Positions 5,084 through 27,141 of a stretch of 32,000 bases of DNA are shown here, in pieces; the stretch's first letter is position 1, and each line of letters starts with the position of its first letter. The stretch lies in the NCBI RefSeq assembly GCF_000010625.1, contig NC_010296.1:3090001-3122000 (forward strand), written 5' to 3'. Source of the stretch: Microcystis aeruginosa NIES-843. GTDB taxonomy: Bacteria > Cyanobacteriota > Cyanobacteriia > Cyanobacteriales > Microcystaceae. The position numbers and the translations under genes are program-made. The notes under the pieces were generated by a model. The model was given only the letters and a program-made list of their open reading frames with translations, was not told where the DNA came from and did not search any database.

Positions 5084-5099
5084 AAGCCAAAAACCCTGT

Positions 5100-5940: not shown

Positions 5941-6220
5941 CCCACATTCCGCACCCTCAACTGTCACATTGAAAATTTTATCTAAATCGTCAAAACGATT
6001 GCCGGCTCTGAATTACAGGCTAATTTGTTTGCCCAGCAGACGCACAATTAGCCCTAAAAATCTGATAGCTCTGATACCAAATTATTGAGATCAACTCTCA
6101 TTAAGCTGGCGATCGCTGACTAGAGTGTGACACTTCATAATTCTTAGTAATCGCTAAAAGTCTTACTATACAAGGGCTAGAGCAACTTTTGATTTCAACG
6201 ACTAGGGTGCGGAATGTGGG
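5941..6220 (+). mobile_element. 280-bp MITE with IS1-type terminal inverted repeats (copy 1)
   Basis: Perfect 17-bp TIRs CCCACATTCCGCACCCT / AGGGTGCGGAATGTGGG and no ORF. A near-identical inverted copy lies at 10548..10827. Confidence 0.88.
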
Positions 6221-6403: not shown

Positions 6404-6964
6404 TTATTGCCCCAGCACGTTAACAGCATCCCCGATCTGTTCATCGCTGACCTCTAGGTATCTTTGCAGGACTTCCAGACTACTGTGACCACTTATTTTT
6501 TGGATCACCCGGAGCGGCACACCCCGGTTGCTCATCATGGTCAAAGCCGACCTACGGAAGCTGTGGGTCGAAACTCCTTTGAGTCCCGCCCGTTCGCAAG
6601 CGTTTCTTAGGATCAGGTCGGCACTTGATCGATGCAGGTGTCCTTTTTCCCTCGCGTTGTGGAAGGAAGGAAAAAGGTAACTATCGGGTTGAAATTCTTG
6701 CAGGTAAAGGTCGAGGATTTTCCGCAGGGCAGGATTGACGGGGATAGAACGGGTTCCCTTCTTGCCTTTGGTGGTGGACTTCCTGAAGGTGATCGCCGTC
6801 CCCACATCGTTGACGGTCAACTGCAGCGCCTCCGATATCCTGCAGCTGGTATGGAAACAGATGCCAAACAGACATCTATCCCGATCGTTATCGAACCCAG
6901 CGAACAGACGATCTAGTTCGGCTTGAGAGAGGATTTTGGCTTGTCCGTTACCGTTAACTTTCAC
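6404..6964 (-). CDS. Tyrosine recombinase/integrase, catalytic domain only (186 aa)
   Basis: Candidate R-K-HxxR-H-Y catalytic set: CRISEA, HSFRRSALT, GHSSLEVLQRYL. GTG start at 6964. There is no room for an N-terminal core-binding domain. Confidence 0.8.
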   Translation of the reverse strand: MKVNGNGQAKILSQAELDRLFAGFDNDRDRCLFGICFHTSCRISEALQLTVNDVGTAITFRKSTTKGKKGTRSIPVNPALRKILDLYLQEFQPDSYLFPSFHNAREKGHLHRSSADLILRNACERAGLKGVSTHSFRRSALTMMSNRGVPLRVIQKISGHSSLEVLQRYLEVSDEQIGDAVNVLGQ

Positions 6965-7245
6965 GATACTTCTGTTCTACTCGACAATACTGCACTTTTG
7001 TGGAAGCCTTGGAAGCTTTTCGGACAGCGATGTCTTTCCGTTTCTTTGAGTGGCTGACCGAGAATCGGGATGTGTTTGCCGCTTACAAAGCCAGTTTAGG
7101 CTTTGTTTGGGCTTGAAATTTGTTTAAGTCCCAGTAGGCCTGCATGAAAATTTCGGTGAGCCTGTCTAGCACTGTGTAGAATCGGGAAAACTTGTTGGGC
7201 AAACTGCCGATTAGCTTTCAAGTGAGAGGTTTCTAAGGCTTTTAA

Positions 7246-7444
7246 CCCACATTCCGCACCCTCAACTGTCACATAATACCAAATTTCTAAATCCATGACA
7301 GACATCCACGCTCGAATGCTTGCCAAGCCGGTGTTCGTTGTGACGCGAATAAAGAAAAATGGTGTAAGCTGTCCCCCTCCAGAGACTTGAGTAAAAATAC
7401 CTAGCTGGTGAAGGTTTTCTCGGTGGCCGCTAGGGGGGTCTTGA
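7246..7444 (+). mobile_element. Left part of a related IS1-TIR element/MITE, truncated by IS1380 copy 1
   Basis: 7246..7274 (CCCACATTCCGCACCCTCAACTGTCACAT) is identical to 5941..5969. The interior diverges and no right TIR appears before the IS end at 7445. Confidence 0.55.
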
Positions 7445-9432
7445 CCCGCATTTCTCACAAACTGAATTAAGAACCTAATTTGGAGGTTAAAAGTTGGTGT
7501 TTTTCAAAAATAAGAGAAACCCGCTTAGTTATCAAGGAATAATCTGACTAAACTAATCAAAAAATTCCTGAATTACTGGAAAAATTCCGTCAATTAGGGA
7601 AAATGTTCACGACAAAGTTAGCTGAATTTATAAGCAGCCATTTTTAAGACTATTTAATGATCTTTGAAAACTCTTCAACTTATCCAGTTCCCGCTATCGC
7701 TTGAATTCTAGAGTAAGCTATCGCTAAAATATCTTGATAGGGACAAGAACTGGCAATTGCGATTAAAATTCTTCTGACACTAACAGTAATTCTAGCTCCT
7801 AATTTAAGGAAATTAAGGCGAATTGTTCCCACTGTCGCTTTGGCAAAAGAAGTTTTAGCCAAACAATTTTGACGAAAAGCTTGCATTAAAACATAAGCCA
7901 TTGATGACAACCAAAGTCTTAATTGATTACTCTCAAATGTCTGTGTCGAATTCCGGTCAGCAAATAAGTCTAATTGTTGCTCTTTAATTCGATTTGACCT
8001 CTCACCTCTGGGGCAATATTTTTCAGTGTAAAGTTTAGATGGGGGAATCTTTGATGCAGGTAAAGAAGTCACAACGTGGCGAATTTTTACGCCCTCACTA
8101 CCAGGACAAACTTTTGTCACCACTCTTCTTGAACGGCTCCAGGATTTTTGGGTTTGATAACATAGGGAACGATACCAAGTCGATTCTGGTACCAATTTCG
8201 CCAATTCTCCTAACTCTTCATCGGGAGAAAATAACGTCTCCATTAATTCAGTAACTGGCTGAAGTCTTTGCTCGTAATCTGCCTTAGCTTTCTCAATTAC
8301 ATCGGTCGCTCGTAATTTTAATTGACTATTCGTTGCCATTGCTAAAACATAATCAACTCCTGCTTGACTTTCGCAAAATTTCATGATATCTTCACGGGAA
8401 TAGGCACTATCTCCTCGTACTAATATCTGCGTATCTGACCATTTTTCTCGAATTATACCGATTATTCGCTGCAATTCTTCTAATGCTCCCCCAGCAGTAT
8501 CTACATGAGAAGACCGGAGTTTAGCTACTAATAAATGATGCTCACAGAAAATATACAAAGGAGCATAACACACTCCTTTATAATAAGTATTGAAAAACGC
8601 TCCCTCTTGATTTCCATGCACTTGGTCATCGGTGACATCCATGTCTAAAATAATTGGTTTCGGTGGCTTTTTGTAGGATTCTAGAAAGATGTCCACAAAA
8701 GCTTTTTCAATTTCTTTGGGGTTAGGCTCGATTTTATGGTAACGACTGTTCTCTTGATTGATGACTGTTTCCGGACAATATTCTAGTCGATTAATTGTAC
8801 TTTTTCCCGCTAAATTTGCTTGGGCTGAGTCAATAAAATTTAGTTTTTTCAATGCTATTGCTAAAGCTGGAGCATGACGTAATTTATCATGATCATTGAC
8901 ATCCTCATATCCCAAAACTATCCCATAAACTCTTTGTGCGAGTAGTTCATGAACTGAATAATCTAGATAGGATGAATTTCGATAATCTCGAAAACATTCG
9001 GCAAACCGAGCCGTTATTTTTAGCTTTTGGTCTAACTCTGCCATCAAAATAATTCCTGCATCTGAGGTGATTTTTCCTCCCTCAAAATTAGCGATTACTT
9101 GTCTTCCATTGAGGTTTCCAAAATTTAATTGATTGAGTCGAGACTGGTCTGAACTAGGAGTCATAAACTTGACATACTTTAAATAGTTTTAATGATTAAA
9201 TTATAGCAAGCTTTTGACTTCATTCTCTACTTAAAATTGAGACTTTATCAACTAATTAACCTAAAAATACGCATTTTAAATTTGTTCTTTTTTCAAGGTC
9301 TAATTGATGATGAGCTTAAGTTGAATCCTAACAACACACTGTCGTTTTTGCTACAAGGCGATCACCCAGTCAAAACCCAGATTTTGTAAGGCTTCGGGGG
9401 TTGGTGATCGTACTTTTTGTGAGAAATGCGGG
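7445..9432 (-). mobile_element. IS1380-family insertion sequence, copy 1 (1988 bp)
   Basis: 17-bp perfect IRs CCCGCATTTCTCACAAA at both ends. Same length and sequence as the copies at 12816 and 19711. Flanks are ...TCTTGA and TTCTT..., so it has no target-site duplication (TSD) of its own. Confidence 0.92.
7680..9164 (-). CDS. IS1380-family DDE transposase (494 aa)
   Basis: GGKITSDAGIILMAELDQKL, LGYEDVNDHDKLRH, ILDMDVTDDQVHGNQEGAFFNTYYKGVCYAPLYIF and VRGDSAYS are typical of IS1380-family transposases. Identical to the ORFs at 13084 and 19979. Confidence 0.92.
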   Translation of the reverse strand: MTPSSDQSRLNQLNFGNLNGRQVIANFEGGKITSDAGIILMAELDQKLKITARFAECFRDYRNSSYLDYSVHELLAQRVYGIVLGYEDVNDHDKLRHAPALAIALKKLNFIDSAQANLAGKSTINRLEYCPETVINQENSRYHKIEPNPKEIEKAFVDIFLESYKKPPKPIILDMDVTDDQVHGNQEGAFFNTYYKGVCYAPLYIFCEHHLLVAKLRSSHVDTAGGALEELQRIIGIIREKWSDTQILVRGDSAYSREDIMKFCESQAGVDYVLAMATNSQLKLRATDVIEKAKADYEQRLQPVTELMETLFSPDEELGELAKLVPESTWYRSLCYQTQKSWSRSRRVVTKVCPGSEGVKIRHVVTSLPASKIPPSKLYTEKYCPRGERSNRIKEQQLDLFADRNSTQTFESNQLRLWLSSMAYVLMQAFRQNCLAKTSFAKATVGTIRLNFLKLGARITVSVRRILIAIASSCPYQDILAIAYSRIQAIAGTG

Positions 9433-10347
9433 TTCTTGTTGATAGTAATTATAATTAACAATTCGATGACGATGAATCTCTAAATAACGACAGAAATTTT
9501 CAGCTCGTTCGTTTTTTAAAGGAGAGATTAATGCTATTGTTTCCTCAATTTTGCCCTGCCATAATAAACTTGCTGCTTTTTTCAATCTCTTCACTGAACC
9601 GCCGACTTTATGAAGATTTTCTACCAAATGAAACCAGTCAAGTATTTCTCTTTTTTCTCCTGGACAATCCCAGTTTTTCACAATTTTCCCAATACCGGGA
9701 TGTCCGTCTCCCAAACAGGTAAGGGGGTCAGATAAAGGTTGTTGATTAACCCAATATATTAACGATTCATTCTCTCCAAACCAAGCTTTTCTTAGGAAAG
9801 TATCAACACAGATTGCTTGATAATCTTTCCAGATACAAGCCTCTCCCTTAGTTTCGGTTCTTAAGCGCACTTTTCCTCCATCTAGACTAATTTCTTGAAC
9901 GGGGTTTCCTGATTCTTCTTCGGCAAATTGGTGGCGATGGACTAATCGTTGTTGAGTCCTAGCCGAGACCTTCATCCCTGTATAAAATTGAAGATCTCTG
10001 GCGGCATTTTCATAAGAAACATTGGCACTAGCTCTTAAACAACAGCGTTCTAAGTAAGGACTAATTTGGTTATTACGAGGAATATTTAAACGGATTGCTT
10101 GTTTTTCTGTCAGGCATAATTCTCCGATGATGCTTTTTATTTTTCTCGGTCTCCCGGCTTGAGTTCCTGTCGTTTTTGTGACCAAAAAAAATCCTAGTTT
10201 CGGAGTTATATATTTTCAGGTCTGTTCTCTTATTGTCGTCTCTATTCCCTCTAAAGTTTGGATTTTTTCAGCCTCAGCTTCCTGATGAAGAATCTTGGCT
10301 ATCGCTTGAATATGTTGGTTAAGTTCTTGTTGTTGCTCTGGAGTCAT
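9433..10347 (-). pseudogene. ISKra4-like transposase, N-terminal ~300 codons: truncated by IS1380 and carrying an in-frame TGA
   Basis: Homologous to 24659..25722 (SLDGGKVRLRT, LGDGHPGI, ILDWFHLVENLHKVGGS). ATG 10347 and the ORF-track entry 9370..10185 are in one frame, separated by TGA at 10216..10218. The last 20 codons of the track ORF (PAFLTKSTITNPRSLTKSGF) are read-through into the IS. Confidence 0.8.
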
Positions 10348-10439
10348 TTTTGTCTTTTCCCCACTCTTTTCTCTATCCCATACCCAATTGATGCTTTTGT
10401 CAAGTAGTTTATTTGTTCTTCAGCTTTGACTTGCTCCCA
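9433..10439 (-). mobile_element. ISKra4-like element A, 5' portion (split by IS1380; remainder at 21699..21894)
   Basis: Terminus TGGGAGCAAGTCA (revcomp of 10427..10439) is followed by the 7-bp duplication AAAGCGC (revcomp of 10440..10446). The inner end abuts the IS1380 IRL at 9432. Confidence 0.75.
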
Positions 10440-10547
10440 GCGCTTTGCGTTCGCCCACAGTTACCGTGAACTGGTTTCTTCCCCATAAATTCAGTACTTG
10501 AACCGTTAGTCAATCGACACTTCGAGACGATACAGGAACGCTTAGGA

Positions 10548-10827
10548 CCCACATTCCGCACCCTAGTCGTTGAAATCAAAAGTTGCTCTAGCCCTTGTAT
10601 AGTAAGACTTTTAGCGATTACTAAGAATTATGAAGTGTCACACTCTAGTCAGCGATCGCCAGCTTAATGAGAGTTGATCTCAATAATTTGGTATCAGAGC
10701 TATCAGATTTTTAGGGCTAATTGTGCATCTGCTGGGCAAACAAATTAGCCTGTAATTCAGAGCCGGCAATCGTTTTGACGATTTAGATAAAATTTTCAAT
10801 GTGACACTTTAGGGTGCGGAATGTGGG
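10548..10827 (-). mobile_element. 280-bp MITE with IS1-type TIRs (copy 2, inverted relative to copy 1)
   Basis: It is the reverse complement of 5941..6220 apart from a few substitutions. It is flanked by direct TTAGGA (10542..10547 and 10828..10833), a candidate TSD. Confidence 0.88.
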
Positions 10828-10833
10828 TTAGGA

Positions 10834-10985
10834 AGTCTTGGCCACTCGTTGCCTTGTTCTTCAAACCTTGACATCCTCACCACCGTAAACGGACGGTGAT
10901 TCCCAAACCTCACGATTTAGGTTTCTGCTTGGGGTCCCGAAGGATTTTTCGCACCTGCCTTAACAGATTTACTCTGTTCTGGTCA
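10834..10985 (-). ncRNA. Candidate TnpB omega-RNA (right-end RNA) scaffold relic
   Basis: Lies immediately 3' of the tnpB stop on the minus strand. Three hairpins are visible: TCC-TTCG-GGA, AAACCT-N8-AGGTTT and CACCG-N8-CGGTG. This position is where IS200/IS605 elements encode the guide-RNA scaffold. No covariance model was run. Confidence 0.4.
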
Positions 10986-11102
10986 TCAGGTCGCTCTACA
11001 GACTGACACCGCAAGCCCTGCGGCCAAAATATTTTTACTAGCGTTAATATCTCGGTCATGGTGAGTCCCACAGTCTGGACAGTCCCATTCTCGAATATTT
11101 AA
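10986..11102 (-). pseudogene. tnpB: TnpB (IS200/IS605-family RNA-guided nuclease), C-terminal fragment
   Basis: Own translation: (L)[37 protein letters not shown]. This is the zinc-finger/RuvC-III end of TnpB, and it continues the fragment at 12568..12815 once the intervening MITE is removed. Confidence 0.8.
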
Positions 11103-11463
11103 CTGGACTTCCCCCATACAGAAATACTAAAAAATCAACAAAACCCTTACTGCATGGAGCTTCTCAGAAAAAATTGACAAGCCACTACTGGGTACATTTT
11201 TCGCTTGAAAATGGCTGTACCGTTGACTGTATCTGGAGTAGAGCGATTCCGTAGAGTTGGCTGTATAGTGATCGCTAACCTCATTGTAACAGATGGTGTC
11301 ATTAATCTCTAGAGTCAGCGATTCCCTCTGTAGCCATGTTTTTGCTGGTTTTCTGCCCCGAAACAAGCTATAATGGTCGAAAGGTCAAATTTGAAAATTT
11401 TTGCCTCAAACCCTATCAGCGTAAGGACTTCAGGAGTTTGTGTCCAGTAGTCCATTAGTATTA

Positions 11464-12497
11464 TAGCAATTCTCTGACTTATGAGGTACAGTAGCAACAG
11501 TGAGTAAACCAATTGCGAATATCTTTTTGAGTAACTTCTAACATAGCCAATTCAATCCCTTCTATTAAGTCTTTGTAAGTTCTCGCCTTCAGTTTTCTTA
11601 ACGTCGCTTTCACTTTTGACCAAAAGTTTTCAATAGGAGAGAATTCGGGAGAATAAGGAGGTAAATAGATGAGTCTAGCTTTTTCTTGTTCGATTATTTC
11701 TCTGACCATTTCTCCGAGATGAATCTTGGCGTTATCCATGATCAGACAGTCTCCTTCTTTAATTTTTGGCAGCACTTCCTTTAGAATAAATCCTTCAAAT
11801 GTTACCGCATCCACTGCACCGTATATGTTGACTGATGCGACAACTTTTTCTAAGCTTATAGCACTAATTATTGAAATATTTCTCCCTCTTTTTTGTGGTT
11901 TTCTTCCCCGAGCTCTTCGGCCAATTAAGGCTCTAGCATAGAGTCTCAAAAGGGCTAAATTTACCCCCGATTCATCGATGAAAATTAGTTTTGATGCCTC
12001 AATTTCCCGAACTTCTGACCAGTATTCCACTCTTTTTTGCTGTACCCTGTCACTTTCTTTTTCCGCCGCGTGTAGTGTTTTTTTTTGAAACTGTAATTGA
12101 GTTTTTGCGTAAGCCGCCCCAGGGTGGCTCTACTGACTTTCACCTGTGTCTTTTCATACAGTAAGTCCGATAATTCTTCGAGAGTTGCATCATTGTTAGC
12201 TTCGATGATTTCTATTAAAATTATCAGTTGTTCACTATTTAACTTGGTTGGCGGACTTCCCCCTTGCGGACGAGGACGGATATCTCCTGTTTCTTTATGT
12301 TGCTTCAATAACTTCTGAATAAAGCTTTTAGCCACGTCAAATCTCTGGGCTAGTCCTCGAATGGAAATTTTTTCTTTCTTCCAGACATCGATAATTTTTT
12401 GGCGAAAATCTACGGAATAGGGTCTCATAGGAAGCTGGTAAGTTCTATTATTTGTCTATTTACTTTCTATTGTACCTCATAGCTCCAAGAATTGCTA
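11464..12497 (-). mobile_element. IS630-family element #1
   Basis: ~36-bp imperfect IRs (TAGCAATTCT...TATGAGGTACARTAG) flanked by TA (11462..11463 / 12498..12499), the IS630 target duplication. Exact ends are +/- a few nt. Confidence 0.7.
11479..12428 (-). CDS. IS630-family transposase in two frames (147-aa HTH part + 183-aa DDE part) joined by a -1 shift at an A9 run
   Basis: ORF-track entries 11985..12428 and 11479..12030. Reading ...NYSFKKK then -1 gives TLHAAEKESDRVQQKRVEYWSEVREIEASKLIFIDESGVNLA. The A9 run is T9 on the + strand at 12078..12086. Confidence 0.8.
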
Positions 12498-12567
12498 TAT
12501 ATGGCTTTAACTCAGGCTCTATAAGACTTTTAGCCATAGCTAGTATGTTTATACGGGGGAAGTCCAG

Positions 12568-12815
12568 ATTTAACGGCATTTTCTCAGCAATATACCCGCA
12601 ATTACTACACCTTTTAGAACTGGGAAACCATCTATCTATTTCGATGTAATTTCTCCCATACCAACGGCATTTATAGGCTAATTGTCGGGTGATTTCTCCC
12701 CAGCTTACATCAGATATTGCCTGAGATAATTTCGGGTTTTTGACCATATTCTTGACGGCTAAATTCTCAACCACAATCGTTTGGTTTTCACGAACTAATT
12801 GAGTGGTTAGCTTGT
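12568..12815 (-). pseudogene. tnpB: TnpB, middle fragment
   Basis: KLTTQLVRENQTIVVENLAVKNMVKNPKLSQAISDVSWGEITRQLAYKCRWYGRNYIEIDRWFPSSKRCSNCGYIAEKMPLN. The N-terminal MRD of track ORF 12460..12822 derives from the IS1380 IR (12816..12822); its C-terminal tail past ...KMPLN derives from the MITE (12460..12567). Confidence 0.85.
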
Positions 12816-14803
12816 CCCGCATTTCTCACAAAAAGTACGATCACCAACCCCCGAAGCCTTACAAAATCTGGGTTTTGACTGGGTGATCGCCTTGTAGCAA
12901 AAACGACAGTGTGTTGTTAGGATTCAACTTAAGCTCATCATCAATTAGACCTTGAAAAAAGAACAAATTTAAAATGCGTATTTTTAGGTTAATTAGTTGA
13001 TAAAGTCTCAATTTTAAGTAGAGAATGAAGTCAAAAGCTTGCTATAATTTAATCATTAAAACTATTTAAAGTATGTCAAGTTTATGACTCCTAGTTCAGA
13101 CCAGTCTCGACTCAATCAATTAAATTTTGGAAACCTCAATGGAAGACAAGTAATCGCTAATTTTGAGGGAGGAAAAATCACCTCAGATGCAGGAATTATT
13201 TTGATGGCAGAGTTAGACCAAAAGCTAAAAATAACGGCTCGGTTTGCCGAATGTTTTCGAGATTATCGAAATTCATCCTATCTAGATTATTCAGTTCATG
13301 AACTACTCGCACAAAGAGTTTATGGGATAGTTTTGGGATATGAGGATGTCAATGATCATGATAAATTACGTCATGCTCCAGCTTTAGCAATAGCATTGAA
13401 AAAACTAAATTTTATTGACTCAGCCCAAGCAAATTTAGCGGGAAAAAGTACAATTAATCGACTAGAATATTGTCCGGAAACAGTCATCAATCAAGAGAAC
13501 AGTCGTTACCATAAAATCGAGCCTAACCCCAAAGAAATTGAAAAAGCTTTTGTGGACATCTTTCTAGAATCCTACAAAAAGCCACCGAAACCAATTATTT
13601 TAGACATGGATGTCACCGATGACCAAGTGCATGGAAATCAAGAGGGAGCGTTTTTCAATACTTATTATAAAGGAGTGTGTTATGCTCCTTTGTATATTTT
13701 CTGTGAGCATCATTTATTAGTAGCTAAACTCCGGTCTTCTCATGTAGATACTGCTGGGGGAGCATTAGAAGAATTGCAGCGAATAATCGGTATAATTCGA
13801 GAAAAATGGTCAGATACGCAGATATTAGTACGAGGAGATAGTGCCTATTCCCGTGAAGATATCATGAAATTTTGCGAAAGTCAAGCAGGAGTTGATTATG
13901 TTTTAGCAATGGCAACGAATAGTCAATTAAAATTACGAGCGACCGATGTAATTGAGAAAGCTAAGGCAGATTACGAGCAAAGACTTCAGCCAGTTACTGA
14001 ATTAATGGAGACGTTATTTTCTCCCGATGAAGAGTTAGGAGAATTGGCGAAATTGGTACCAGAATCGACTTGGTATCGTTCCCTATGTTATCAAACCCAA
14101 AAATCCTGGAGCCGTTCAAGAAGAGTGGTGACAAAAGTTTGTCCTGGTAGTGAGGGCGTAAAAATTCGCCACGTTGTGACTTCTTTACCTGCATCAAAGA
14201 TTCCCCCATCTAAACTTTACACTGAAAAATATTGCCCCAGAGGTGAGAGGTCAAATCGAATTAAAGAGCAACAATTAGACTTATTTGCTGACCGGAATTC
14301 GACACAGACATTTGAGAGTAATCAATTAAGACTTTGGTTGTCATCAATGGCTTATGTTTTAATGCAAGCTTTTCGTCAAAATTGTTTGGCTAAAACTTCT
14401 TTTGCCAAAGCGACAGTGGGAACAATTCGCCTTAATTTCCTTAAATTAGGAGCTAGAATTACTGTTAGTGTCAGAAGAATTTTAATCGCAATTGCCAGTT
14501 CTTGTCCCTATCAAGATATTTTAGCGATAGCTTACTCTAGAATTCAAGCGATAGCGGGAACTGGATAAGTTGAAGAGTTTTCAAAGATCATTAAATAGTC
14601 TTAAAAATGGCTGCTTATAAATTCAGCTAACTTTGTCGTGAACATTTTCCCTAATTGACGGAATTTTTCCAGTAATTCAGGAATTTTTTGATTAGTTTAG
14701 TCAGATTATTCCTTGATAACTAAGCGGGTTTCTCTTATTTTTGAAAAACACCAACTTTTAACCTCCAAATTAGGTTCTTAATTCAGTTTGTGAGAAATGC
14801 GGG
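12816..14803 (+). mobile_element. IS1380-family insertion sequence, copy 2 (1988 bp)
   Basis: IRs CCCGCATTTCTCACAAA / TTTGTGAGAAATGCGGG. It has its own 4-bp TSD TTGT (12812..12815 / 14804..14807). Removing it restores tnpB ...DHLHKLTTQLV. Confidence 0.93.
13084..14568 (+). CDS. IS1380-family DDE transposase (494 aa)
   Basis: Identical protein to 7680..9164 and 19979..21463 in the supplied track. Confidence 0.92.
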   Translation: MTPSSDQSRLNQLNFGNLNGRQVIANFEGGKITSDAGIILMAELDQKLKITARFAECFRDYRNSSYLDYSVHELLAQRVYGIVLGYEDVNDHDKLRHAPALAIALKKLNFIDSAQANLAGKSTINRLEYCPETVINQENSRYHKIEPNPKEIEKAFVDIFLESYKKPPKPIILDMDVTDDQVHGNQEGAFFNTYYKGVCYAPLYIFCEHHLLVAKLRSSHVDTAGGALEELQRIIGIIREKWSDTQILVRGDSAYSREDIMKFCESQAGVDYVLAMATNSQLKLRATDVIEKAKADYEQRLQPVTELMETLFSPDEELGELAKLVPESTWYRSLCYQTQKSWSRSRRVVTKVCPGSEGVKIRHVVTSLPASKIPPSKLYTEKYCPRGERSNRIKEQQLDLFADRNSTQTFESNQLRLWLSSMAYVLMQAFRQNCLAKTSFAKATVGTIRLNFLKLGARITVSVRRILIAIASSCPYQDILAIAYSRIQAIAGTG

Positions 14804-14870
14804 TTGTGTAAATGGTCTTTTCTGTTATCAGTAATTTGGGCATGAATTCTGGCTACTTTGATTTTTGCTT
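14804..14870 (-). pseudogene. tnpB: TnpB, upstream fragment
   Basis: Own translation: (Q)AKIKVARIHAQITDNRKDHLHK, in frame with 12815 after removal of IS1380 copy 2 and one TTGT. The frame closes (TAA) just beyond 14871, where an IS66-like end begins. Confidence 0.7.
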
Positions 14871-14939
14871 GTAATTAGTCAGTGCAATAAGAAGTGTTAA
14901 TTGAGAATGAACAGGACCCTGACAGGGGCTGTATTATAG
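14871..14939 (+). mobile_element. Putative left end/leader of an IS66-family (ISBst12-like) element
   Basis: Begins GTAATTAGTCAG (IS66-family ends typically start GTAA) exactly where tnpB homology stops. It is contiguous with 19288..19710 once IS1634-A and one TTATAG are removed, which places the IS66-type transposase ATG ~75 bp from this end. Confidence 0.45.
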
Positions 14940-15077
14940 CTGAACTTCCCCCATACATATATACTATAATAGCCGAAAACCCTTATCCATCAATGGATAC
15001 GCCCCTTAACCTTTCTTAATGTACCCATGTAATTTGTAACATTTCTTAATGGACAAGAATTCTCTCTATTTGCTAGA

Positions 15078-15582
15078 ATGATAGCCATGTATATAGAAAA
15101 AGTTCCTAACCGTAATTCCCCCCCCGCCGTTCTTCTTCGGGAGTCCTACCGAGAAGGAGAACAAGTCAAAAAAAGAACCCTGGCCAATCTCTCAAAATTA
15201 CCCGATGATATTATCGACAATCTGAAACTGGCTCTTAAAGGAGCAACACTGTCAATGAATGAAGGCATTCCCGCTCATTTTGAAGTGATTAGAAGTCTTC
15301 CTCATGGTCATGTGATGGCTATTTTAGAGACGATTAAAAAATTGGGTTTAGATAAAATAATCAGTGAAAAATCCTCCCGAATCAGAAACTTAGTGGTGGC
15401 GATGATTGTGGCAAGAATCATCAATCCTAAATCGAAACTAGCCACAGCGAGAGGGTTTAATAGCGAGACTTGTAGTCAGAGTTTAGGACAATTGTTAGAC
15501 TTAGAGAAAGCCGATGAAGACGAATTATATAACGCCTTAGATTGGTTATTAGAAAAACAAGATAAAATTGAGAATCACCTAG
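15078..15582 (+). pseudogene. IS1634-family transposase, fragment 1 of 3 (copy A)
   Basis: MYIEKVPNRNSPPAVLLRESYREGEQVKKRTLANLSKLPDD...DWLLEKQDKIENHL. It then diverges from copy B (..EKHLALKHLESG..) at the MITE junction. Confidence 0.85.
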
Positions 15583-15763
15583 TGGGACTTAGGCGTTTTC
15601 GGTCAGCAAAAAAGGCTCAAACCATTACGGGACAAAGGGTTAACCTCGATTTATGATTTTCCTTGATATATCTGGGTTTCAGCGATTTTGGGCTTCTCGA
15701 AGTAAATCCCAAGCGGGGATTGGAGTTGAGGCTTTTATCGATTTGTTTTTTGTCTAAGTCCCA
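15583..15763. mobile_element. 181-bp MITE (TIR TGGGACTTAG) nested in IS1634-A
   Basis: Ends TGGGACTTAGGCG... / ...TGTCTAAGTCCCA. TSD CTAG (15579..15582 / 15764..15767). Copy B has the uninterrupted site CACCTAGCAC. Confidence 0.85.
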
Positions 15764-16659
15764 CTAGCAATTAAACACTTAGAATCAGGAACATTAGTCT
15801 TGTATGATGTCACTTCTACCTACCTAGAAGGAAATGGTTGTGAACTGGGAAAATATGGTTATAATCGAGATAAAAAGAAGGGGAAAACTCAGATAGTTTT
15901 TGGGTTGCTCTGTTCAGCTAAGGGTTGTCCGATAGCGGTAGAAGTATTTGAAGGAAACACCTCAGACGGTGCTACTTTAAGCGGACAAATTGAGAAAGTC
16001 AGAAAGGGTTGGGGGATTGAGAATGTGGTCTGGGTAAGCGATAGAGGAATTTTCACCAACTCGAAAATCAAGGAATTAGTAAAACCGCTAGAAGGATTAG
16101 ACTATATTACTGGTTTAACTAAGCCTCAAATTCGGAAACTGGCTGAGGTAGAAGTGATTCAATTAGGATTATTTGAGCAGGTAAACTTGGTGGAATTTGA
16201 GAGTGAAGATTATCCCGACGAAAGATTAATTGCTTGTCGGAATCCCTTCATTGCCCAGAAAAATCAACTACAAAGAGAGGCATTATTAGAAGCGGTAGAG
16301 AAGGAACTAGATTTGATTGTTCAGGCGACTCAAAGGGAGAAAAGAGCTTTAAAGGGTCAAGATAAGATAGCTTTGAGAGTGGGCAAGGTTCTTCATCAGT
16401 TTAAGGTCAATAAATACTATAACCTAGAGATAACAGAAGAAGGCTTTTCTTATCAGCGTAAGCTGGAATTAATCGCTCAAGAAACGGCCTTAGATGGTGT
16501 GTATGTGTTAAGAACTTCTCTGGAGTCAACTTTGATGGATGCAGCGACGACGGTTAAAGCTTATAAAAGTTTGTCTCAAGTGGAGGAGGCATTTCGCTGT
16601 TATAAGTCAATTGATTTAAAGGTACGTCCTATCTATCATTATAAGGGTGATAGAGTCAA
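15764..16659 (+). pseudogene. IS1634-family transposase, fragment 2 of 3 (copy A)
   Basis: (A)IKHLESGTLVLYDVTSTYLEGNGCELGKYGYNRDKKKGKTQIVFGLL...YKSIDLKVRPIYHYKGDRV, colinear with copy B. The tail of track ORF 15800..16771 reads into the nested IS. Confidence 0.85.
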
Positions 16660-16687
16660 TTGGACTTTGGACAAAGAAAAACAGATT

Positions 16688-16704
16688 TGCGTAAAACTTA
16701 CGCA
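16688..16704. promoter_or_regulatory. Subterminal palindrome TGCGTAA-AAC-TTACGCA
   Basis: Perfect 7-bp arms, 28 nt inside the element end. One of three related palindromes in this IS. Confidence 0.45.
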
Positions 16705-16788
16705 AATAAAATTTGAGGCAATATCTCCTTTGTCTCAGCCAGAAAAAAAGCTGAAAAATAGCGGTTCTTAAGGTCTTCTTAGCAAGAC

Positions 16789-18237
16789 TTAGGGAACTTT
16801 CATCTTTTCTTTTTTACTTTTTGTCTGTTTTTTGATAACTTGATGGCGGGTTCGTGGCACTTTTTTATAACCTTTAATTCGTCCAGCCGAATAACCTCGG
16901 CGTTTGGGAGATTTGACCAAAGTGCCAATCTCCGAAATTATTCTGTAAAAGTCTCTTTGAACCAAGCTGGGTGTAATTTCTACCGATTCACTTTTTTTCA
17001 AATACTGCTCCCAAGGACGGGGTAAAACCAGAGCTAATTTCCTAGTTGCCCATAAATTTACAGCAGCTAATAGGGTGAGTTGAACCCAATTTTCCTCATG
17101 ATTAACTTCAGGGGTATAATAGGCATTCAGCAACAATTTTTGTTGACCAAATCGAAAAAGATGTTCCAGATCATAACGTTGTCCATAAGCCTCATAACAT
17201 TCTTGAAGACTTAACTCATAACGACGAGAACCAATAAGGATAAGCCACATCGGTTTCCAGACGGCTTTACCAGTTTCATCACTGACAATAATTTGTAGTA
17301 AGGTAAAGGGATGAGAGTGCATTTCATAGTCGGATGTTCCCCTCATTAGCATTTGTTTCCAACCAGAGATTTTGAGATTAAGTTCACGTCCCCTTTTAGT
17401 CGTAAAAGTTGATTGAATGATTTCATCTGGTTCGAGCCAAGTTGTCTCATCTTTGAGGTCAAATTTATCCCCATACCAACGGGGATGACCCGGTTGTTTG
17501 GGAGAATAATCTTCAGGAATAAATTGCCGATAAAAGACCCGATTACTTCTCCCTCGTGTGAGGGTAACTAAATTATTTTGCTTGACTTGTTCTCCAAGAA
17601 AACCTCGCTGACTATAGAGACTATCAGCGACTAAAACTGATAATTTATCTTTCCAGGGAACTGAGGAATGGTTCAGGATTTTTTTGACTTGGTTACTGGC
17701 CACAGAAATGTCTTTTTCTCCTGAAGATACTCGTTGTCCTGACAGGGGAATTGCCCAAGGCACGTTTCCCGTTTCACTTCGTTCTGGCAGAGCAGCAATT
17801 ACTGAATAAGCATGACCAATATTGATGGGTTTATTGCCTTTGATAGTATTGGGTTGATAGATATACTTTTTGTCTTCTAGAGTCGCCGAATAAGGTTTTG
17901 GACAAGGAGTTACATCTACTCCAAATAAATAGAATTGTCTAGAAACGGGGGGAGGAATAGTAGCCGAAACGACTGATAATAAGCTATCAACTGCTTTTTG
18001 ATAATTGTCATTTGTTGGACTTGGTAAAAACTCTTGAATCCCTTTATATAAACTGTTATAATCTCGACGAAATAAAGGGTTCAAAGATAATTCGGCAACT
18101 GTTGAAGCTTGTCGATTCGACGAGAGGGAATCCAGCAATTCCATGACCGTCTCGCGTCTCGAACCAAGGGCGTTATAGAGTTGCCTTCTCCACTTCAAAA
18201 GTTCTTCGACATCAGGACAAATTTCTTGACTTTTCAT
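16789..18237 (-). CDS. DDE transposase, IS4/IS701 superfamily (family uncertain)
   Basis: ORF-track entry 16789..18309; the likely start is ATG 18237 (MKSQEICPDVEELLKWRRQLY...). Candidate acidic residues lie in FGVDVTP and VLVADSLYS, with a YREK-like C-terminal motif YGQRYDLEHLFRFGQQK. Confidence 0.75.
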   Translation of the reverse strand: MKSQEICPDVEELLKWRRQLYNALGSRRETVMELLDSLSSNRQASTVAELSLNPLFRRDYNSLYKGIQEFLPSPTNDNYQKAVDSLLSVVSATIPPPVSRQFYLFGVDVTPCPKPYSATLEDKKYIYQPNTIKGNKPINIGHAYSVIAALPERSETGNVPWAIPLSGQRVSSGEKDISVASNQVKKILNHSSVPWKDKLSVLVADSLYSQRGFLGEQVKQNNLVTLTRGRSNRVFYRQFIPEDYSPKQPGHPRWYGDKFDLKDETTWLEPDEIIQSTFTTKRGRELNLKISGWKQMLMRGTSDYEMHSHPFTLLQIIVSDETGKAVWKPMWLILIGSRRYELSLQECYEAYGQRYDLEHLFRFGQQKLLLNAYYTPEVNHEENWVQLTLLAAVNLWATRKLALVLPRPWEQYLKKSESVEITPSLVQRDFYRIISEIGTLVKSPKRRGYSAGRIKGYKKVPRTRHQVIKKQTKSKKEKMKVP

Positions 18238-18263
18238 CGGAAAAAATATATGAGAAATTAATC

Positions 18264-18280
18264 TGCGTGAAATATACGCA
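18264..18280. promoter_or_regulatory. Imperfect palindrome TGCGTGA-AAT-ATACGCA in the divergent promoter region
   Basis: Lies between the transposase start (18237, -) and ORF2 start (18321, +). Related to the palindromes at 16688 and 18811. Confidence 0.4.
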
Positions 18281-18320
18281 AATATTCTTATAATATAAGA
18301 AGCCCCCAATCTGTAAGCTG

Positions 18321-18756
18321 ATGCTCAAATATAATTTCTTGAAGACGAACCAAGAAGCTGGACTTAGAGCCAAACAAATCAAGGCTACTATTCGTAAGTT
18401 GAAGCAAAAAATCCAGAAAATCGAAGCAGAAGGAGAAGTCGCTCCGCCCCCTTGTCATGTGATTCGTTATCAAACTAAGCTTTCATCAAAAAATTTACTG
18501 GTATTATAAACTACAAAGCAACGAACCGCTTTTTCCAACAGCAACTGATAGTAACAAAAAAAGTAAATATTTATATTTAGGTAAAGCTGGAAGCGAAGCT
18601 CATCTTGAGGCGGTGGAAAAAGTAGCTCGAAGAAGTCTTATTGACGAATTAGAGAGAGTTATTAATTCTCTCCATGAAAGTTACTTGGATGTTTGTTTTG
18701 GAGGGGAAACGGAGCCTGACCCTTCTTATTATAACGAGGGATTAAAAGAGGAGTAA
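18321..18756 (+). pseudogene. Accessory ORF2 of the 2.2-kb IS (unknown function), frameshifted at an A6 run
   Basis: Track ORF 18321..18509 (MLKYNFLKTNQEAGLRAKQIKATIRKLKQKIQKIEAEGEVAPPPCHVIRYQTKLSS...). The +1 frame stays open from 18463 to TAA 18754..18756 (..KIYWYYKLQSNEPLFPTATDSNKKSKYLYLGKAGSEAHLEAVEKVARRSLIDELERVINSLHESYLDVCFGGETEPDPSYYNEGLKEE). Deleting one A at 18488..18493 would fuse them. Confidence 0.55.
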
Positions 18757-18810
18757 CCCTTTCCTCTTTGATGTGAGACTGACTAGGCAAAATTAAACGC
18801 AAATTAAATT

Positions 18811-18827
18811 TGCGTAAATATTACGCA
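18811..18827. promoter_or_regulatory. Subterminal palindrome TGCGTAA-ATA-TTACGCA
   Basis: Perfect 7-bp arms. It overlaps a second palindrome ACGCAAATT-A-AATTTGCGT (18798..18816), 28 nt from the other element end. Confidence 0.45.
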
Positions 18828-18855
18828 AATTTAATTTTTTTTGTCCAAAGTCCAA

Positions 18856-19210
18856 AGTCAAGGCTCATATCTTTTTATGTATGTTGGCTTATTATGTGGA
18901 ATGGCATTTAAAACAGTCTTTGGCTCCTTTGTTATTTGAGGATGAAGAAATTGATGATAGTTCTCTGAATGTGATTAAGGCGAGTCGCAGTGAATCGGTG
19001 CAATCTAAAGAGAGAAAAAAACGGAATCAAGAGAACTTTCCTGTGCATAGCTTTCGGACTTTGTTGGAAGACTTAGGGACAATTTGCTTGAATACAGTGG
19101 AATGTACGATTAGGGAGGGAAGTTATCGTTTTTCTAAGATAACTCGACCGACTCAACTGCAACAAAAGGCTTTAGATTTATTAGGAGTTTCCCTGATTTG
19201 TACCCAGTAA
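18856..19210 (+). pseudogene. IS1634-family transposase, fragment 3 of 3 (copy A)
   Basis: VKAHIFLCMLAYYVEWHLKQSLAPLLFEDEEIDD...LLGVSLICTQ*. Includes track ORF 18881..19210, which is ~95% identical to 24293..24616. Confidence 0.85.
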
Positions 19211-19292
19211 CGGGGCGGCGGAAATTCTCTTAATCCCTCCTACAGCATAGGTTATGGCCTTTTGTCAACGGGGAAGTCCAGTTATAGAGGAC

Positions 19293-19710
19293 ATGGAAAT
19301 TAACGACCAACTACTGGCGACCTTAATCAACGCCTCCGACTTCGACCCAGAGCAGATGGGGGCGAGTTTTTGGTATGAAGCTTACCGAAAGCAGAATCAA
19401 GAAAACCAAGGGCTAAAAGCTAGGCTAGATGGGGGAGAGAAAGATAAGCAAGAGCTGGAAGCCAAGGTATGTCAGCTGGAAAAAGAATTAGAACAGTTGA
19501 AAGAAAAGCTCAACAAACTGAGTCAAAGGAACAGTGAGAATAGCTCCCTACCGCCCTCGTCAGATGGGTACAAGAAGAAAAGTCAAGGATTTGAGAGCAA
19601 GGTCAAGAAGAAAAGGGGTCCGAAATATGGTCACGAGGGAACAACTCGCAATGGCTTTGAGCGAATAGACAATCAGATCGAACTTACCCTTGAAAATTGT
19701 CCGGTCTGTG
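19293..19710 (+). pseudogene. IS66-family transposase (TnpC-like), N-terminal fragment truncated by IS1380 copy 3
   Basis: MEINDQLL... followed by a coiled coil (QELEAKVCQLEKELEQLKEKLNKLSQRNSENSSLPPSSD), a basic patch and CPVC, which is the typical IS66 TnpC N-terminus. It ends at the IS IRL. The first 13 codons of the track ORF come from the IS1634 end and the short IS66-like leader (19282..19292), and its tail comes from the IS1380 IR. Confidence 0.6.
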
Positions 19711-21698
19711 CCCGCATTTCTCACAAAAAGTACGATCACCAACCCCCGAAGCCTTACAAAATCTGGGTTTTGACTGGGTGATCGCCTTGTAGCAAAAACG
19801 ACAGTGTGTTGTTAGGATTCAACTTAAGCTCATCATCAATTAGACCTTGAAAAAAGAACAAATTTAAAATGAGTATTTTTAGGTTAATTAGTTGATAAAG
19901 TCTCAATTTTAAGTAGAGAATGAAGTCAAAAGCTTGCTATAATTTAATCATTAAAACTATTTAAAGTATGTCAAGTTTATGACTCCTAGTTCAGACCAGT
20001 CTCGACTCAATCAATTAAATTTTGGAAACCTCAATGGAAGACAAGTAATCGCTAATTTTGAGGGAGGAAAAATCACCTCAGATGCAGGAATTATTTTGAT
20101 GGCAGAGTTAGACCAAAAGCTAAAAATAACGGCTCGGTTTGCCGAATGTTTTCGAGATTATCGAAATTCATCCTATCTAGATTATTCAGTTCATGAACTA
20201 CTCGCACAAAGAGTTTATGGGATAGTTTTGGGATATGAGGATGTCAATGATCATGATAAATTACGTCATGCTCCAGCTTTAGCAATAGCATTGAAAAAAC
20301 TAAATTTTATTGACTCAGCCCAAGCAAATTTAGCGGGAAAAAGTACAATTAATCGACTAGAATATTGTCCGGAAACAGTCATCAATCAAGAGAACAGTCG
20401 TTACCATAAAATCGAGCCTAACCCCAAAGAAATTGAAAAAGCTTTTGTGGACATCTTTCTAGAATCCTACAAAAAGCCACCGAAACCAATTATTTTAGAC
20501 ATGGATGTCACCGATGACCAAGTGCATGGAAATCAAGAGGGAGCGTTTTTCAATACTTATTATAAAGGAGTGTGTTATGCTCCTTTGTATATTTTCTGTG
20601 AGCATCATTTATTAGTAGCTAAACTCCGGTCTTCTCATGTAGATACTGCTGGGGGAGCATTAGAAGAATTGCAGCGAATAATCGGTATAATTCGAGAAAA
20701 ATGGTCAGATACGCAGATATTAGTACGAGGAGATAGTGCCTATTCCCGTGAAGATATCATGAAATTTTGCGAAAGTCAAGCAGGAGTTGATTATGTTTTA
20801 GCAATGGCAACGAATAGTCAATTAAAATTACGAGCGACCGATGTAATTGAGAAAGCTAAGGCAGATTACGAGCAAAGACTTCAGCCAGTTACTGAATTAA
20901 TGGAGACGTTATTTTCTCCCGATGAAGAGTTAGGAGAATTGGCGAAATTGGTACCAGAATCGACTTGGTATCGTTCCCTATGTTATCAAACCCAAAAATC
21001 CTGGAGCCGTTCAAGAAGAGTGGTGACAAAAGTTTGTCCTGGTAGTGAGGGCGTAAAAATTCGCCACGTTGTGACTTCTTTACCTGCATCAAAGATTCCC
21101 CCATCTAAACTTTACACTGAAAAATATTGCCCCAGAGGTGAGAGGTCAAATCGAATTAAAGAGCAACAATTAGACTTATTTGCTGACCGGAATTCGACAC
21201 AGACATTTGAGAGTAATCAATTAAGACTTTGGTTGTCATCAATGGCTTATGTTTTAATGCAAGCTTTTCGTCAAAATTGTTTGGCTAAAACTTCTTTTGC
21301 CAAAGCGACAGTGGGAACAATTCGCCTTAATTTCCTTAAATTAGGAGCTAGAATTACTGTTAGTGTCAGAAGAATTTTAATCGCAATTGCCAGTTCTTGT
21401 CCCTATCAAGATATTTTAGCGATAGCTTACTCTAGAATTCAAGCGATAGCGGGAACTGGATAAGTTGAAGAGTTTTCAAAGATCATTAAATAGTCTTAAA
21501 AATGGCTGCTTATAAATTCAGCTAACTTTGTCGTGAACATTTTCCCTAATTGACGGAATTTTTCCAGTAATTCAGGAATTTTTTGATTAGTTTAGTCAGA
21601 TTATTCCTTGATAACTAAGCGGGTTTCTCTTATTTTTGAAAAACACCAACTTTTAACCTCCAAATTAGGTTCTTAATTCAGTTTGTGAGAAATGCGGG
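19711..21698 (+). mobile_element. IS1380-family insertion sequence, copy 3 (1988 bp)
   Basis: Same IRs and length as copies 1 and 2. I noticed one difference (A at 19872 vs C at 12977). The flanks ...GTCTGTG and AAGAAGAG... share no duplication. Confidence 0.92.
19979..21463 (+). CDS. IS1380-family DDE transposase (494 aa)
   Basis: Identical protein to the other two copies. Confidence 0.92.
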   Translation: MTPSSDQSRLNQLNFGNLNGRQVIANFEGGKITSDAGIILMAELDQKLKITARFAECFRDYRNSSYLDYSVHELLAQRVYGIVLGYEDVNDHDKLRHAPALAIALKKLNFIDSAQANLAGKSTINRLEYCPETVINQENSRYHKIEPNPKEIEKAFVDIFLESYKKPPKPIILDMDVTDDQVHGNQEGAFFNTYYKGVCYAPLYIFCEHHLLVAKLRSSHVDTAGGALEELQRIIGIIREKWSDTQILVRGDSAYSREDIMKFCESQAGVDYVLAMATNSQLKLRATDVIEKAKADYEQRLQPVTELMETLFSPDEELGELAKLVPESTWYRSLCYQTQKSWSRSRRVVTKVCPGSEGVKIRHVVTSLPASKIPPSKLYTEKYCPRGERSNRIKEQQLDLFADRNSTQTFESNQLRLWLSSMAYVLMQAFRQNCLAKTSFAKATVGTIRLNFLKLGARITVSVRRILIAIASSCPYQDILAIAYSRIQAIAGTG

Positions 21699-21894
21699 AA
21701 GAAGAGATTTGCTCTATTGCTTCGGGAGCCGTTGAATCCACGGTTAAACAGATTGACCGACGACTGAAAATTTCTGGAGCCCAGTGGAATGAAGAAAATA
21801 TCCCTCAAGTGCTTAAACACCGCTGTGCTTACCTAAATAACAGTCTTTAGCTATTGAATAGTATTTATGTTCTGACAAAACTGACTTGCTCCCC
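21699..21894 (+). mobile_element. ISKra4-like element A, 3' portion
   Basis: Starts at the IS1380 copy 3 IRR with AAGAA. It ends ...TGACTTGCTCCCC (21894), followed by the duplication AAAGCGC (21895..21901). Confidence 0.75.
21704..21850 (+). pseudogene. ISKra4-like transposase, C-terminal 48 codons (the other half of 9433..10347)
   Basis: Own translation EICSIASGAVESTVKQIDRRLKISGAQWNEENIPQVLKHRCAYLNNSL*, colinear with EGISIGSGSVESKIKQIAHRLKITGASWESGNVPQVLRHRCAYLNGCLF of the paralogue at 24659. Confidence 0.8.
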
Positions 21895-21904
21895 AAAGCG
21901 CTCG

Positions 21905-22246
21905 CTACACGAGATCGTCTTCGGAACTAACATCCGAGCTAATAATTGCCTCCGCAATCTGCCGACGTGTGACCCCCGATAAACAAAGGGCGCGGGTTAT
22001 CAGGTCAAGTGAAACCGAGGAATCACCCGATTCAATTTTCGCCACTCGTGACTGGCTCGATTCCATTCTTTTTGCTAACTCTTTTTGAGAAATGTTTTGA
22101 CTTTTTCTAATTTCTTTTAATTTTCTCCCGAGGGCTAGTTTGAGTTCGATAAGCTCGGATTCTACGGGCGTAAGCTCTAGAAATTCCTCTACTGTTCCCA
22201 CCTTCCAGCCCGCCGCTTCTAAAAGTTGACGTTTAGCTAAATCCAT
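21905..22246 (-). CDS. higA: HTH (XRE-family) antitoxin, HigA-like
   Basis: 113 aa with HTH ISQKELAKRMESSQSRVAKIESG. It sits 15 nt downstream of the toxin gene (toxin-first order). Confidence 0.75.
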   Translation of the reverse strand: MDLAKRQLLEAAGWKVGTVEEFLELTPVESELIELKLALGRKLKEIRKSQNISQKELAKRMESSQSRVAKIESGDSSVSLDLITRALCLSGVTRRQIAEAIISSDVSSEDDLV

Positions 22247-22261
22247 GTCCGATCTCCCTTT

Positions 22262-22600
22262 TTAATTGATTGCATCGTAAAGCTTCAAGCGCTTCTGACA
22301 TCTTTCGATCGCTTCTTTCGGTGTTTGATTCGTTTTTTTAGCAAATACCTCCAGAATAATAATCGCGTCCTCATCAATTCGATAAATAATCCGCCATGTT
22401 TTATCTTGATCGTTAACTCGTAACTCTTGACATCTAGCACCGATGCTAGGCATAGGTCTAGAGTGGGGCAAAGAGAGCGACTCTCCCTTTTGCAGCCGTC
22501 GCAACAAATAACCAGCTTCTAGACGGGCTTCTAGGGAAAAAGGAGGAGTTTTCACCTCTCCACTCAACCAAACGATATCTTTATCATTTTTGTTTTGCAT
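22262..22600 (-). CDS. higB: RelE/ParE-superfamily toxin, HigB / phage Gp49-like
   Basis: 112 aa. The WLSGEVKTPPFSLEARLEAGYLLRRLQKGESLSLPHSRPM...WRIIYRIDEDAIIILEVFAKKTNQTP pattern is typical of Gp49-like HigB toxins. Confidence 0.75.
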   Translation of the reverse strand: MQNKNDKDIVWLSGEVKTPPFSLEARLEAGYLLRRLQKGESLSLPHSRPMPSIGARCQELRVNDQDKTWRIIYRIDEDAIIILEVFAKKTNQTPKEAIERCQKRLKLYDAIN

Positions 22601-22614
22601 TTATTATCCCATGA

Positions 22615-22632
22615 TATGTCAAATCTGACATA
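22615..22632. promoter_or_regulatory. Candidate higBA operator palindrome TATGTCA-AATC-TGACATA
   Basis: Perfect 7-bp arms, 15-32 nt upstream of the higB ATG (22600, minus strand). Confidence 0.35.
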
Positions 22633-22776
22633 CGGGCAAGTGGTAAACTGCCTTTTGTATCAGATTTCCTGCGAGCTTGAAGATATATCGCTTTAATGAG
22701 GATATTTATCCAGTTTACAGCGATAATTCCTCAAAAAACGGTGATTAGCTCGGATTCAGCGATTACCCTACCTCTC

Positions 22777-27129: not shown

Positions 27130-27141
27130 ATGCGTAAAAGC

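Follow-up and report, generated by a model that had tools for sequence, protein, structure and literature searches.

The locus and its insertion sequences

The stretch of the Microcystis aeruginosa NIES-843 chromosome considered here (NC_010296.1, positions 3,090,001 to 3,122,000) is 32,000 nucleotides long; it is called the window below, and all positions are counted within it. Ordinary genes occupy 1-5937, and from ~5940 to the window end nearly all open reading frames (ORFs) are transposases or transposase fragments, of the IS1380, ISKra4, IS1634, IS630, IS66, IS605/TnpB, NF041680-type, IS5-like and ISAzo13-like groups. Within this part, one transposase gene of an ISKra4-family insertion sequence (IS) is found in two pieces on opposite strands, and each piece directly adjoins a copy of an IS1380-family element (Table 1). 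We argue that the IS1380-family element inserted into the ISKra4-family element, and that recombination between IS1380 copies very probably separated the halves afterwards. In the NIES-843 genome, 11.8% of the sequence is IS or miniature inverted-repeat transposable element (MITE) sequence, and homologous recombination between these repeats has been proposed as a source of genome plasticity in Microcystis (Kaneko et al. 2007, PMC2779907). For comparison, the chromosome of M. viridis NIES-102 (AP019314.1) is 99.9-100% identical to the window over shared segments, and many contigs from bloom metagenomes and the SRA likewise match window segments at 99.9-100%. Loci from this material are cited by L numbers where they have to be told apart.

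Table 1. Features of the rearranged region and its surroundings, in window coordinates
Feature	Position	Strand	Remarks
IS66-family DDE-domain fragment	7139-7245	-	100% identical to NIES-102 L231 3267-3373
Flank A, first 199 bp of IS4-like element	7246-7444	+	begins with terminal repeat CCCACATTCCGCACCCT; ended by right end of copy 1
IS1380 copy 1	7445-9432	-	1988 bp; transposase gene 7680-9164(-)
ISKra4 left part, 1006 bp	9433-10438	-	terminal repeat GGGAGCAAGTCA at 10438; transposase codons 1-305; AAGAA in reverse complement at 9433-9437
ISKra4 target-site duplication, copy one	10439-10447		9 bp, reverse complement, CAAAGCGCT
Native flank, left end of ISKra4	10439-10871	-	inverted relative to 21894-24223; collinear with L012 1674-1818, beside the HTH gene in empty-site contigs
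IS605-family TnpB element, 3' part	10873-12815	-	right end 10873, inserted 11 bp beyond the native helicase gene's stop codon
IS1380 copy 2	12816-14803	+	same sequence as copy 1
IS1634-family element, ISMae31-like	14940-19281	+	simple insertion, 6-bp duplication TTATAG; empty site L239 4041-4046
Flank E, N-terminal part of IS66-like transposase gene (to ~residue 152)	19282-19710	+	DUF6444, E=2.4e-9; ended by left end of copy 3
IS1380 copy 3	19711-21698	+	one substitution against copies 1 and 2: C>A, IS position 162
ISKra4 right part, 195 bp	21699-21893	+	AAGAA 21699-21703; last 48 codons and stop 21704-21850; terminal repeat ends 21893
ISKra4 target-site duplication, copy two	21894-21902		9 bp, CAAAGCGCT
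Native flank, right end of ISKra4	21894-24223	+	HTH/Gp49 toxin-antitoxin-like pair, glyoxalase gene, 301-aa ORF, truncated PIN gene (Pfam)
Paralogous ISKra4-family element	24597-25873	-	transposase 49% identical; nested in second IS1634-family copy 24222-28694

Members of the IS1380 family have a single ORF, a length of ~1.5-2 kb and terminal inverted repeats beginning with CC. The element in the window fits this pattern. Its three copies are 1988 bp long with perfect 17-bp terminal inverted repeats, CCCGCATTTCTCACAAA, and the single ORF of 494 amino acids matches PF13701 (E=1e-152) and scores 407.8 bits against NF033539 (cut-off 180; model positions 2-419 of 419). ISMae30 is an IS1380-family element of 1991 bp with 16 copies in NIES-843 (Kaneko et al. 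2007, PMC2779907). Judged by size, family and host, the window element is probably ISMae30: both encode an IS1380-family transposase, both measure ~1.99 kb, and both are multicopy in Microcystis, with at least 10 copies of the window element in NIES-102.

Copies 1 and 3 are inverted relative to each other and differ by one mismatch in 1988 nucleotides, so that both breakpoints are marked by near-identical inverted repeats. At its left end (9432), copy 1 adjoins the N-terminal half of the ISKra4 element, and at its right end (7445) an unrelated IS fragment; copy 3 adjoins the C-terminal ISKra4 fragment on the right and an IS66-like N-terminal fragment on the left. Copy 2 is a simple insertion into a TnpB gene and is uninvolved in the rearrangement. 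It is bounded by a 4-bp duplication, TTGT, at 12812-12815 and 14804-14807, and when this copy and one TTGT are taken out in silico, the TnpB frame runs through the junction again (...ARIHAQITDNRKDHLHKLTTQLVRENQ..., ...KVARIHAQITDNRKDHLHKLTTQLVRENQTIVVENL...).

The target-site duplications of this element are 4-5 bp long, namely AAGAA, defined by an intact copy of the ISKra4 element in contig L017 (see below), and TTGT at copy 2. Ten IS1380 copies of NIES-102 were surveyed with their flanks (L229-L238): four carry a 4-bp duplication, three a 5-bp one, and the remaining three have none. AAGAA and TTGT are therefore both normal for the element, and the three copies lacking a duplication imply that exchange of flanks between copies is common. 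Scanning of genome contigs with the IS1380 transposase gave best matches of 70-83% identity (Crocosphaera, Xenococcaceae and Microcystis metagenome-assembled genomes), which told nothing about the flanks of this element. Among the matches listed from a scan of metagenome contigs with the 17-nucleotide terminal repeat, three loci carry the window IS, none of them with relevant flanks. In these listed matches (L109-L228), the repeat is conserved in many IS1380-family elements of diverse bacteria, and the left flanks of the loci often end in YTAR. It also occurs there as inverted pairs ~160-175 bp apart, for example in L112, L113, L145, L152 and L157, which suggests MITE derivatives.

One ISKra4-family element in two pieces

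The ISKra4-family element is 1196 bp long, with terminal repeats of ~12 bp and ends GGGAGCAAGTCA and TGACTTGCTCCC. An earlier note on this DNA had proposed that the ORF at 9370-10185(-), homologous to a 285-amino-acid transposase and ending at the left end of copy 1, has its missing C-terminus right after copy 3. With this paralogue (24659-25516(-); 264.3 bits against NF033572) as the reference for colinearity, both parts of the proposal were borne out. The product of the N-terminal half, 9433-10185(-), aligns to paralogue residues 1-237 (49% identity, E=3e-78) and stops exactly at the IS left end; for the C-terminal fragment, 21704-21847(+), the alignment covers residues 237-284 (65% identity, E=2e-20). 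This second alignment passes the test that the earlier note had set for its own refutation. Thus, both pieces meet at one residue of the paralogue.

The reading frame can be rejoined in silico when 9433-19710 is flipped and the joining IS is deleted together with one AAGAA. The resulting ORF has 353 codons and differs at five positions from P0064, a full-length protein of 353 amino acids that represents a database cluster of 219 sequences. Among the five is codon 44 (10216-10218(-)), an in-frame TGA in place of the Leu of P0064. When this stop is masked, the rejoined protein scores 311.7 bits against NF033572 (cut-off 205) over model positions 2-422; its 353 residues cover the full length of this ISKra4-family model. 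The copy was probably already defective, either before or after it was split. In the paralogous element, a frameshift in a T-run is needed to join the N-terminal ~60 codons to the 285-amino-acid ORF. Thus, both ISKra4 copies look defective at about the same place.

The word AAGAA adjoins the IS at both junctions, as the reverse complement of 9433-9437 and at 21699-21703. An uninterrupted version of the ISKra4 element is present in contig L017, in which window 9433-10438 corresponds to L017 1050-2055 and window 21699-22726 to L017 1054-27, both at 100% identity. The two halves overlap in L017 by exactly 5 bp, and the duplication is therefore not a chance match. The proposal of the earlier note that one target-site duplication is divided between two IS copies agrees with this overlap as well as with the rejoined frame. 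The intact copy and the full-length protein together prove that an IS1380 element inserted into an ISKra4-like element with a 5-bp duplication. In the Joint Genome Institute (JGI) metagenome contig L027 (1-655), the right terminus of an IS1380-interrupted ISKra4 element adjoins internal position 10093 of an inverted ISKra4 copy. This arrangement resembles a nested self-insertion, located at some other site or present in a different strain.

The outer ends of the two ISKra4 pieces are also bounded by a duplication. It had been given as 7 bp by the earlier note; its presence at both ends stands, and four contigs with the empty site set its length at 9 bp, CAAAGCGCT. These contigs (L012, L013, L014 and L019) carry a single AGCGCTTTG, i.e., one copy of the 9-bp word, and in all of them matches to 10439-10547 are joined directly to matches of 21894 onward. 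Since the outer flanks are contiguous in the empty sites and have the 9-bp word in common, both halves derive from one ISKra4-like insertion, a single origin that is proven by the duplication and the empty-site contigs. The insertion site is located between a pair of helix-turn-helix (HTH) and Gp49 genes and a DEAD-box helicase gene of a Microcystis genomic island. The native DNA at 21894-24223 is 99.7-100% identical to L012-L016 and L018-L020.

The reciprocal flanks

The other two flanks of copies 1 and 3 do not belong together. When both copies are read in the direction of the IS, the sequence to the right of copy 1 starts with TCAAG (TCAAGACCCC), and the sequence to the left of copy 3 has CTGTG as its last letters (GGTCTGTG); they have no common duplication, which is why the earlier note had left this reciprocal junction unreconciled. 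The former is flank A. Its homologue in NIES-102 (L233 7764-7876) continues into a gene for a 552-amino-acid DUF4277/DDE_Tnp_1 transposase. The latter is flank E, whose homologues carry zf-IS66 and DDE_Tnp_IS66 domains, and which is found uninterrupted in L239 (3978-4469), where the sequence continues past the break. Because the native continuation of flank A lies in L233 and that of flank E in L239, the two are not a cognate pair. Altogether, the flanks come from at least three IS1380 sites, which are the ISKra4 element, an IS66 relic and the IS4-like element, and at least two exchange events are therefore needed. Flank A was also tried as the continuation of the IS66 gene of flank E. A 12-nucleotide likeness to L239 (A.ACCCCCCTAG) is taken as coincidental, as in L233 this sequence proves to be a native part of the IS4-like element.

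To the left of flank A, window 6993-7245 matches L231 3121-3373 at 100% and L239 6272-6384 at 92%. In NIES-102, the IS66 DDE fragment within it is 359 bp longer and reaches the left end of the IS1380 copy beside which the ISKra4 C-fragment lies. A left terminus region of an IS66 relic lies at 14871-14939, parted from flank E by the nested IS1634-family element. On the un-inverted map, the DDE fragment at 7139-7245 and the IS66 N-terminus come to lie on one strand, in the order expected of a single IS66 relic. Three pieces are predicted to have been lost, namely the remainder of the IS4-like element, the right-hand portion of the IS66 DDE fragment and the central part of the IS66 gene, and all three are absent from the 32-kb window. 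In L239 4001-6741, a Microcystis-like contig, the N-terminal part (+) and the DDE part (-) of the IS66 gene are on opposite strands with an IS3-like element between them, so the IS66 relic has been rearranged elsewhere too.

A proposed history of the locus

We consider it highly probable that an ISMae30-like IS1380 element inserted into the ISKra4 element, that homologous recombination between inverted IS1380 copies then produced an inversion, and that one more IS1380-mediated event took place. The inversion is what we infer from the positions of the halves: one lies at the left end of the inverted copy and the other at the right end of the forward copy, the topology expected of recombination between inverted copies. 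The exchanged cognate flanks are recognisable in one pair by AAGAA and by gene continuity; the reciprocal pair has no match, which is explained only by assuming a second event.

The ISKra4 element with its 9-bp duplication already lay between the HTH/Gp49 pair and the helicase gene when IS1380 inserted and made AAGAA. In the history that we propose, two more IS1380 copies would have been nearby in the opposite orientation, one in the IS66-like relic and the other in an IS4-like element that had itself inserted in the same relic. Recombination of the RecA type between the ISKra4-resident copy and one of the inverted copies would have flipped the intervening DNA. By this step, the ISKra4 N-terminal half and its native flank would have come to lie, on the minus strand, beside the left end of copy 1, and the C-terminal 195 bp would have kept their place to the right of copy 3. 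Another exchange, between two IS1380 copies in direct orientation, would have removed the remainder of the IS4-like element and the central part of the IS66 relic; this would explain why the flanks at 7444 and 19710 have no common duplication.

The ancestral order would have begun on the left with the left part of the IS66 DDE region and the 5' part of the IS4-like element, followed by IS1380(-), the remainder of the IS4-like element, the right part of the IS66 DDE region, the IS66 middle and a second IS1380(-). To the right of it would have come the IS66 N-terminus, TnpB, the native flank and the ISKra4 N-terminal half, then IS1380(+), and finally the ISKra4 C-fragment, HTH and Gp49. Inversion between the (+) copy and either (-) copy, together with one deletion between direct copies, would give the present map. 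Three equally short histories of two steps do so, which differ in the order of the events. The inverted interval is 10,278 bp in two of the three and larger in the third, in which extra DNA would have been deleted later. The earlier note had proposed a flip of 9433-19710 (10.3 kb) between identical copies. Its inversion and its topology are retained; the copies are near-identical (IS position 162), and the exact interval is only one of those that three equally short histories allow. It had further called for another event or a copy outside the window. The extra event is indeed needed, since flanks A and E come from different elements, and it would most simply be a local deletion between direct copies, which suffices without any outside copy. 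The flanks outside the entire structure from copy 1 to copy 3 are syntenic with NIES-102, and the events were therefore local. In NIES-102, the C-fragment is joined via one IS1380 to the IS66 DDE fragment, i.e., the same locus shows a different rearrangement, consistent with an independent deletion there. The ISKra4 N-terminal half was beside none of the ten NIES-102 copies sampled. Scans of viral contigs for the predicted cognate junctions found nothing, and the pattern of single-nucleotide differences among the copies was uninformative as a guide to the crossover point.

Several points weigh against this history. The ancestral order, with N-terminal half, IS1380 and C-terminal half in succession at this locus, was found in no genome or contig. 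The junction of the N-terminal half with the IS left end, across which a truncated ORF of 271 amino acids runs, is not on record elsewhere. The far flank of L017 is non-cognate, and this contig may be a graph path of the assembly that crosses a repeat, or a further copy of the element. What it proves is how the intact element reads; the state of this locus does not follow from it. For the deletion step, the grounds are parsimony and absence from the 32-kb window, and the missing pieces could lie elsewhere in the genome. Finally, the source assembly may contain a mis-join across the three near-identical 2-kb repeats.

Alternative explanations

If wrong flanks had been joined across the 2-kb IS1380 repeats during assembly, the ISKra4 element of the real genome would be interrupted but not split. 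The identity of copies 1 and 2, the single nucleotide that sets copy 3 apart and the lack of independent support for the junction of the N-terminal half all make such an error conceivable, but three of the four junctions are present in independent assemblies. Four contigs, each from a different sample, contain the junction of the IS66 flank with the IS left end, and the junction between the IS and the C-fragment is seen in four contigs besides NIES-102; metagenome contig L022 spans the IS66 flank, the whole IS and the C-fragment. Moreover, in the closed NIES-102 chromosome too, the left flank of the IS beside the C-fragment is non-cognate, and the ORF across the junction of flank A with the IS is present in GCA_041443045.1. 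We regard an assembly artefact as very unlikely. A one-step intramolecular replicative transposition of the ISKra4-resident IS1380 would yield a second, inverted copy and an inversion at once, and would leave the old junctions of the donor on different copies in inverted orientation, which is the topology observed. It needs flanks A (7444) and E (19710) to be contiguous, with an inverted duplication of 4-5 bp, whereas the ends read TCAAG and CTGTG, and flank A continues as the IS4-like element (L233) and flank E as the IS66 transposase (L239). It is rejected on these grounds and retains hardly any probability.

The halves might also stem from two separate composites of ISKra4 and IS1380, each independently truncated. 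L027, in which the right part of such a composite stands beside an inverted ISKra4 copy, indicates that the composite or its right end is present at more than one place in some strains, but two composites are contradicted by the same 9-bp word at both outer flanks, which are contiguous in the four empty-site contigs, and this explanation is rejected as the least probable of all. Movement of copies 1 and 3 as a unit, as a composite transposon, was rejected, since the outer flanks CTTGA and AAGAA have no common duplication. It is further conceivable that the segment of 10.3 kb between the inverted IS1380 copies is an active flip-flop, with both orientations in populations and with copy 2 offering further isomers. 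In the metagenome contigs, only the present orientation of the copy-3 side was seen, and we think an active flip-flop unlikely. If it existed, the locus would be a natural reporter of in situ rates of IS recombination during blooms. Insertion into the ISKra4 element followed by inversion and deletion between IS1380 copies is thus the history that we prefer.

Other elements in and around the inverted segment

When simple nested insertions are left out of account, the DNA from 10439 to 19710 forms a single contiguous whole, in the order native DNA (10439-10871), the 3' part of TnpB, copy 2, the left end of the IS66 relic, the IS1634-family element and flank E. The TnpB element is broken not only by copy 2 at 12815/12816 but also at 11100-12497, where the intervening sequence includes a frameshifted IS630-like gene. 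ISMae31, which the element at 14940-19281 resembles in family and size, is an IS1634-family element of 2168 bp with 41 copies in NIES-843 (Kaneko et al. 2007, PMC2779907). Nested in the element at 14940-19281 is an IS of 2196 bp (16660-18855) with an NF041680-type transposase and 56-bp terminal repeats. The second IS1634-family copy, at 24222-28694, is inverted relative to the first; it carries the ISKra4 paralogue and an IS630 element (~25908-27144), and no matching duplication was found for it.

Directly beside the ISKra4 insertion site lies the toxin-antitoxin pair of Gp49 (HigB-like) and HTH (HigA-like) genes, 21905-22600(-). In relatives, this pair is part of an island with an integrase, PIN genes, a 937-amino-acid DEAD/MZB helicase and ArdC-like genes. 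The window lacks the helicase gene and with it that side of the island, and the integrase fragment at 6404-6964 has no homology to the island integrase of L015. A MITE of 280 bp is present in two inverted copies, 5941-6220 and 10548-10827, which are 99% identical. It shares its terminal repeat, CCCACATTCCGCACCCT, with the IS4-like element at 7246. A 6-bp duplication bounds the copy at 10548-10827, as the empty site in L012 confirms. None was found at 5941-6220, and this copy may mark another rearrangement breakpoint.

Relation to known IS-driven rearrangements

The phenomenon itself is textbook IS-driven plasticity, which has long been noted in Microcystis and is routine there. As in classical inversions by IS recombination, near-identical inverted repeats lie at the breakpoints and duplications have been swapped between copies; in Microcystis, ~30% of the IS1380 copies of NIES-102 are likewise without cognate duplications. 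The case in the window differs in scale and setting. In strain PCC 7806, a repeat-flanked inversion of 2.5 Mb has been described (PMC11448079), whereas the present one would span ~10 kb inside an IS graveyard, affects no host gene, and would have had its reciprocal junction erased by a second event.

For annotation, the two ISKra4 fragments are best described as one pseudogene split by the IS1380 element, probably ISMae30, and the region of 7.4-21.9 kb as a relic of nested ISs in which no host function is at stake. Such regions are error-prone in assemblies, and synteny breaks within them should not be over-read. The locus is also a worked example of how swapped target-site duplications and empty-site contigs allow multi-step IS rearrangements to be reconstructed. 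It adds one more concrete case for the plasticity of the Microcystis genome through recombination between its many IS copies.

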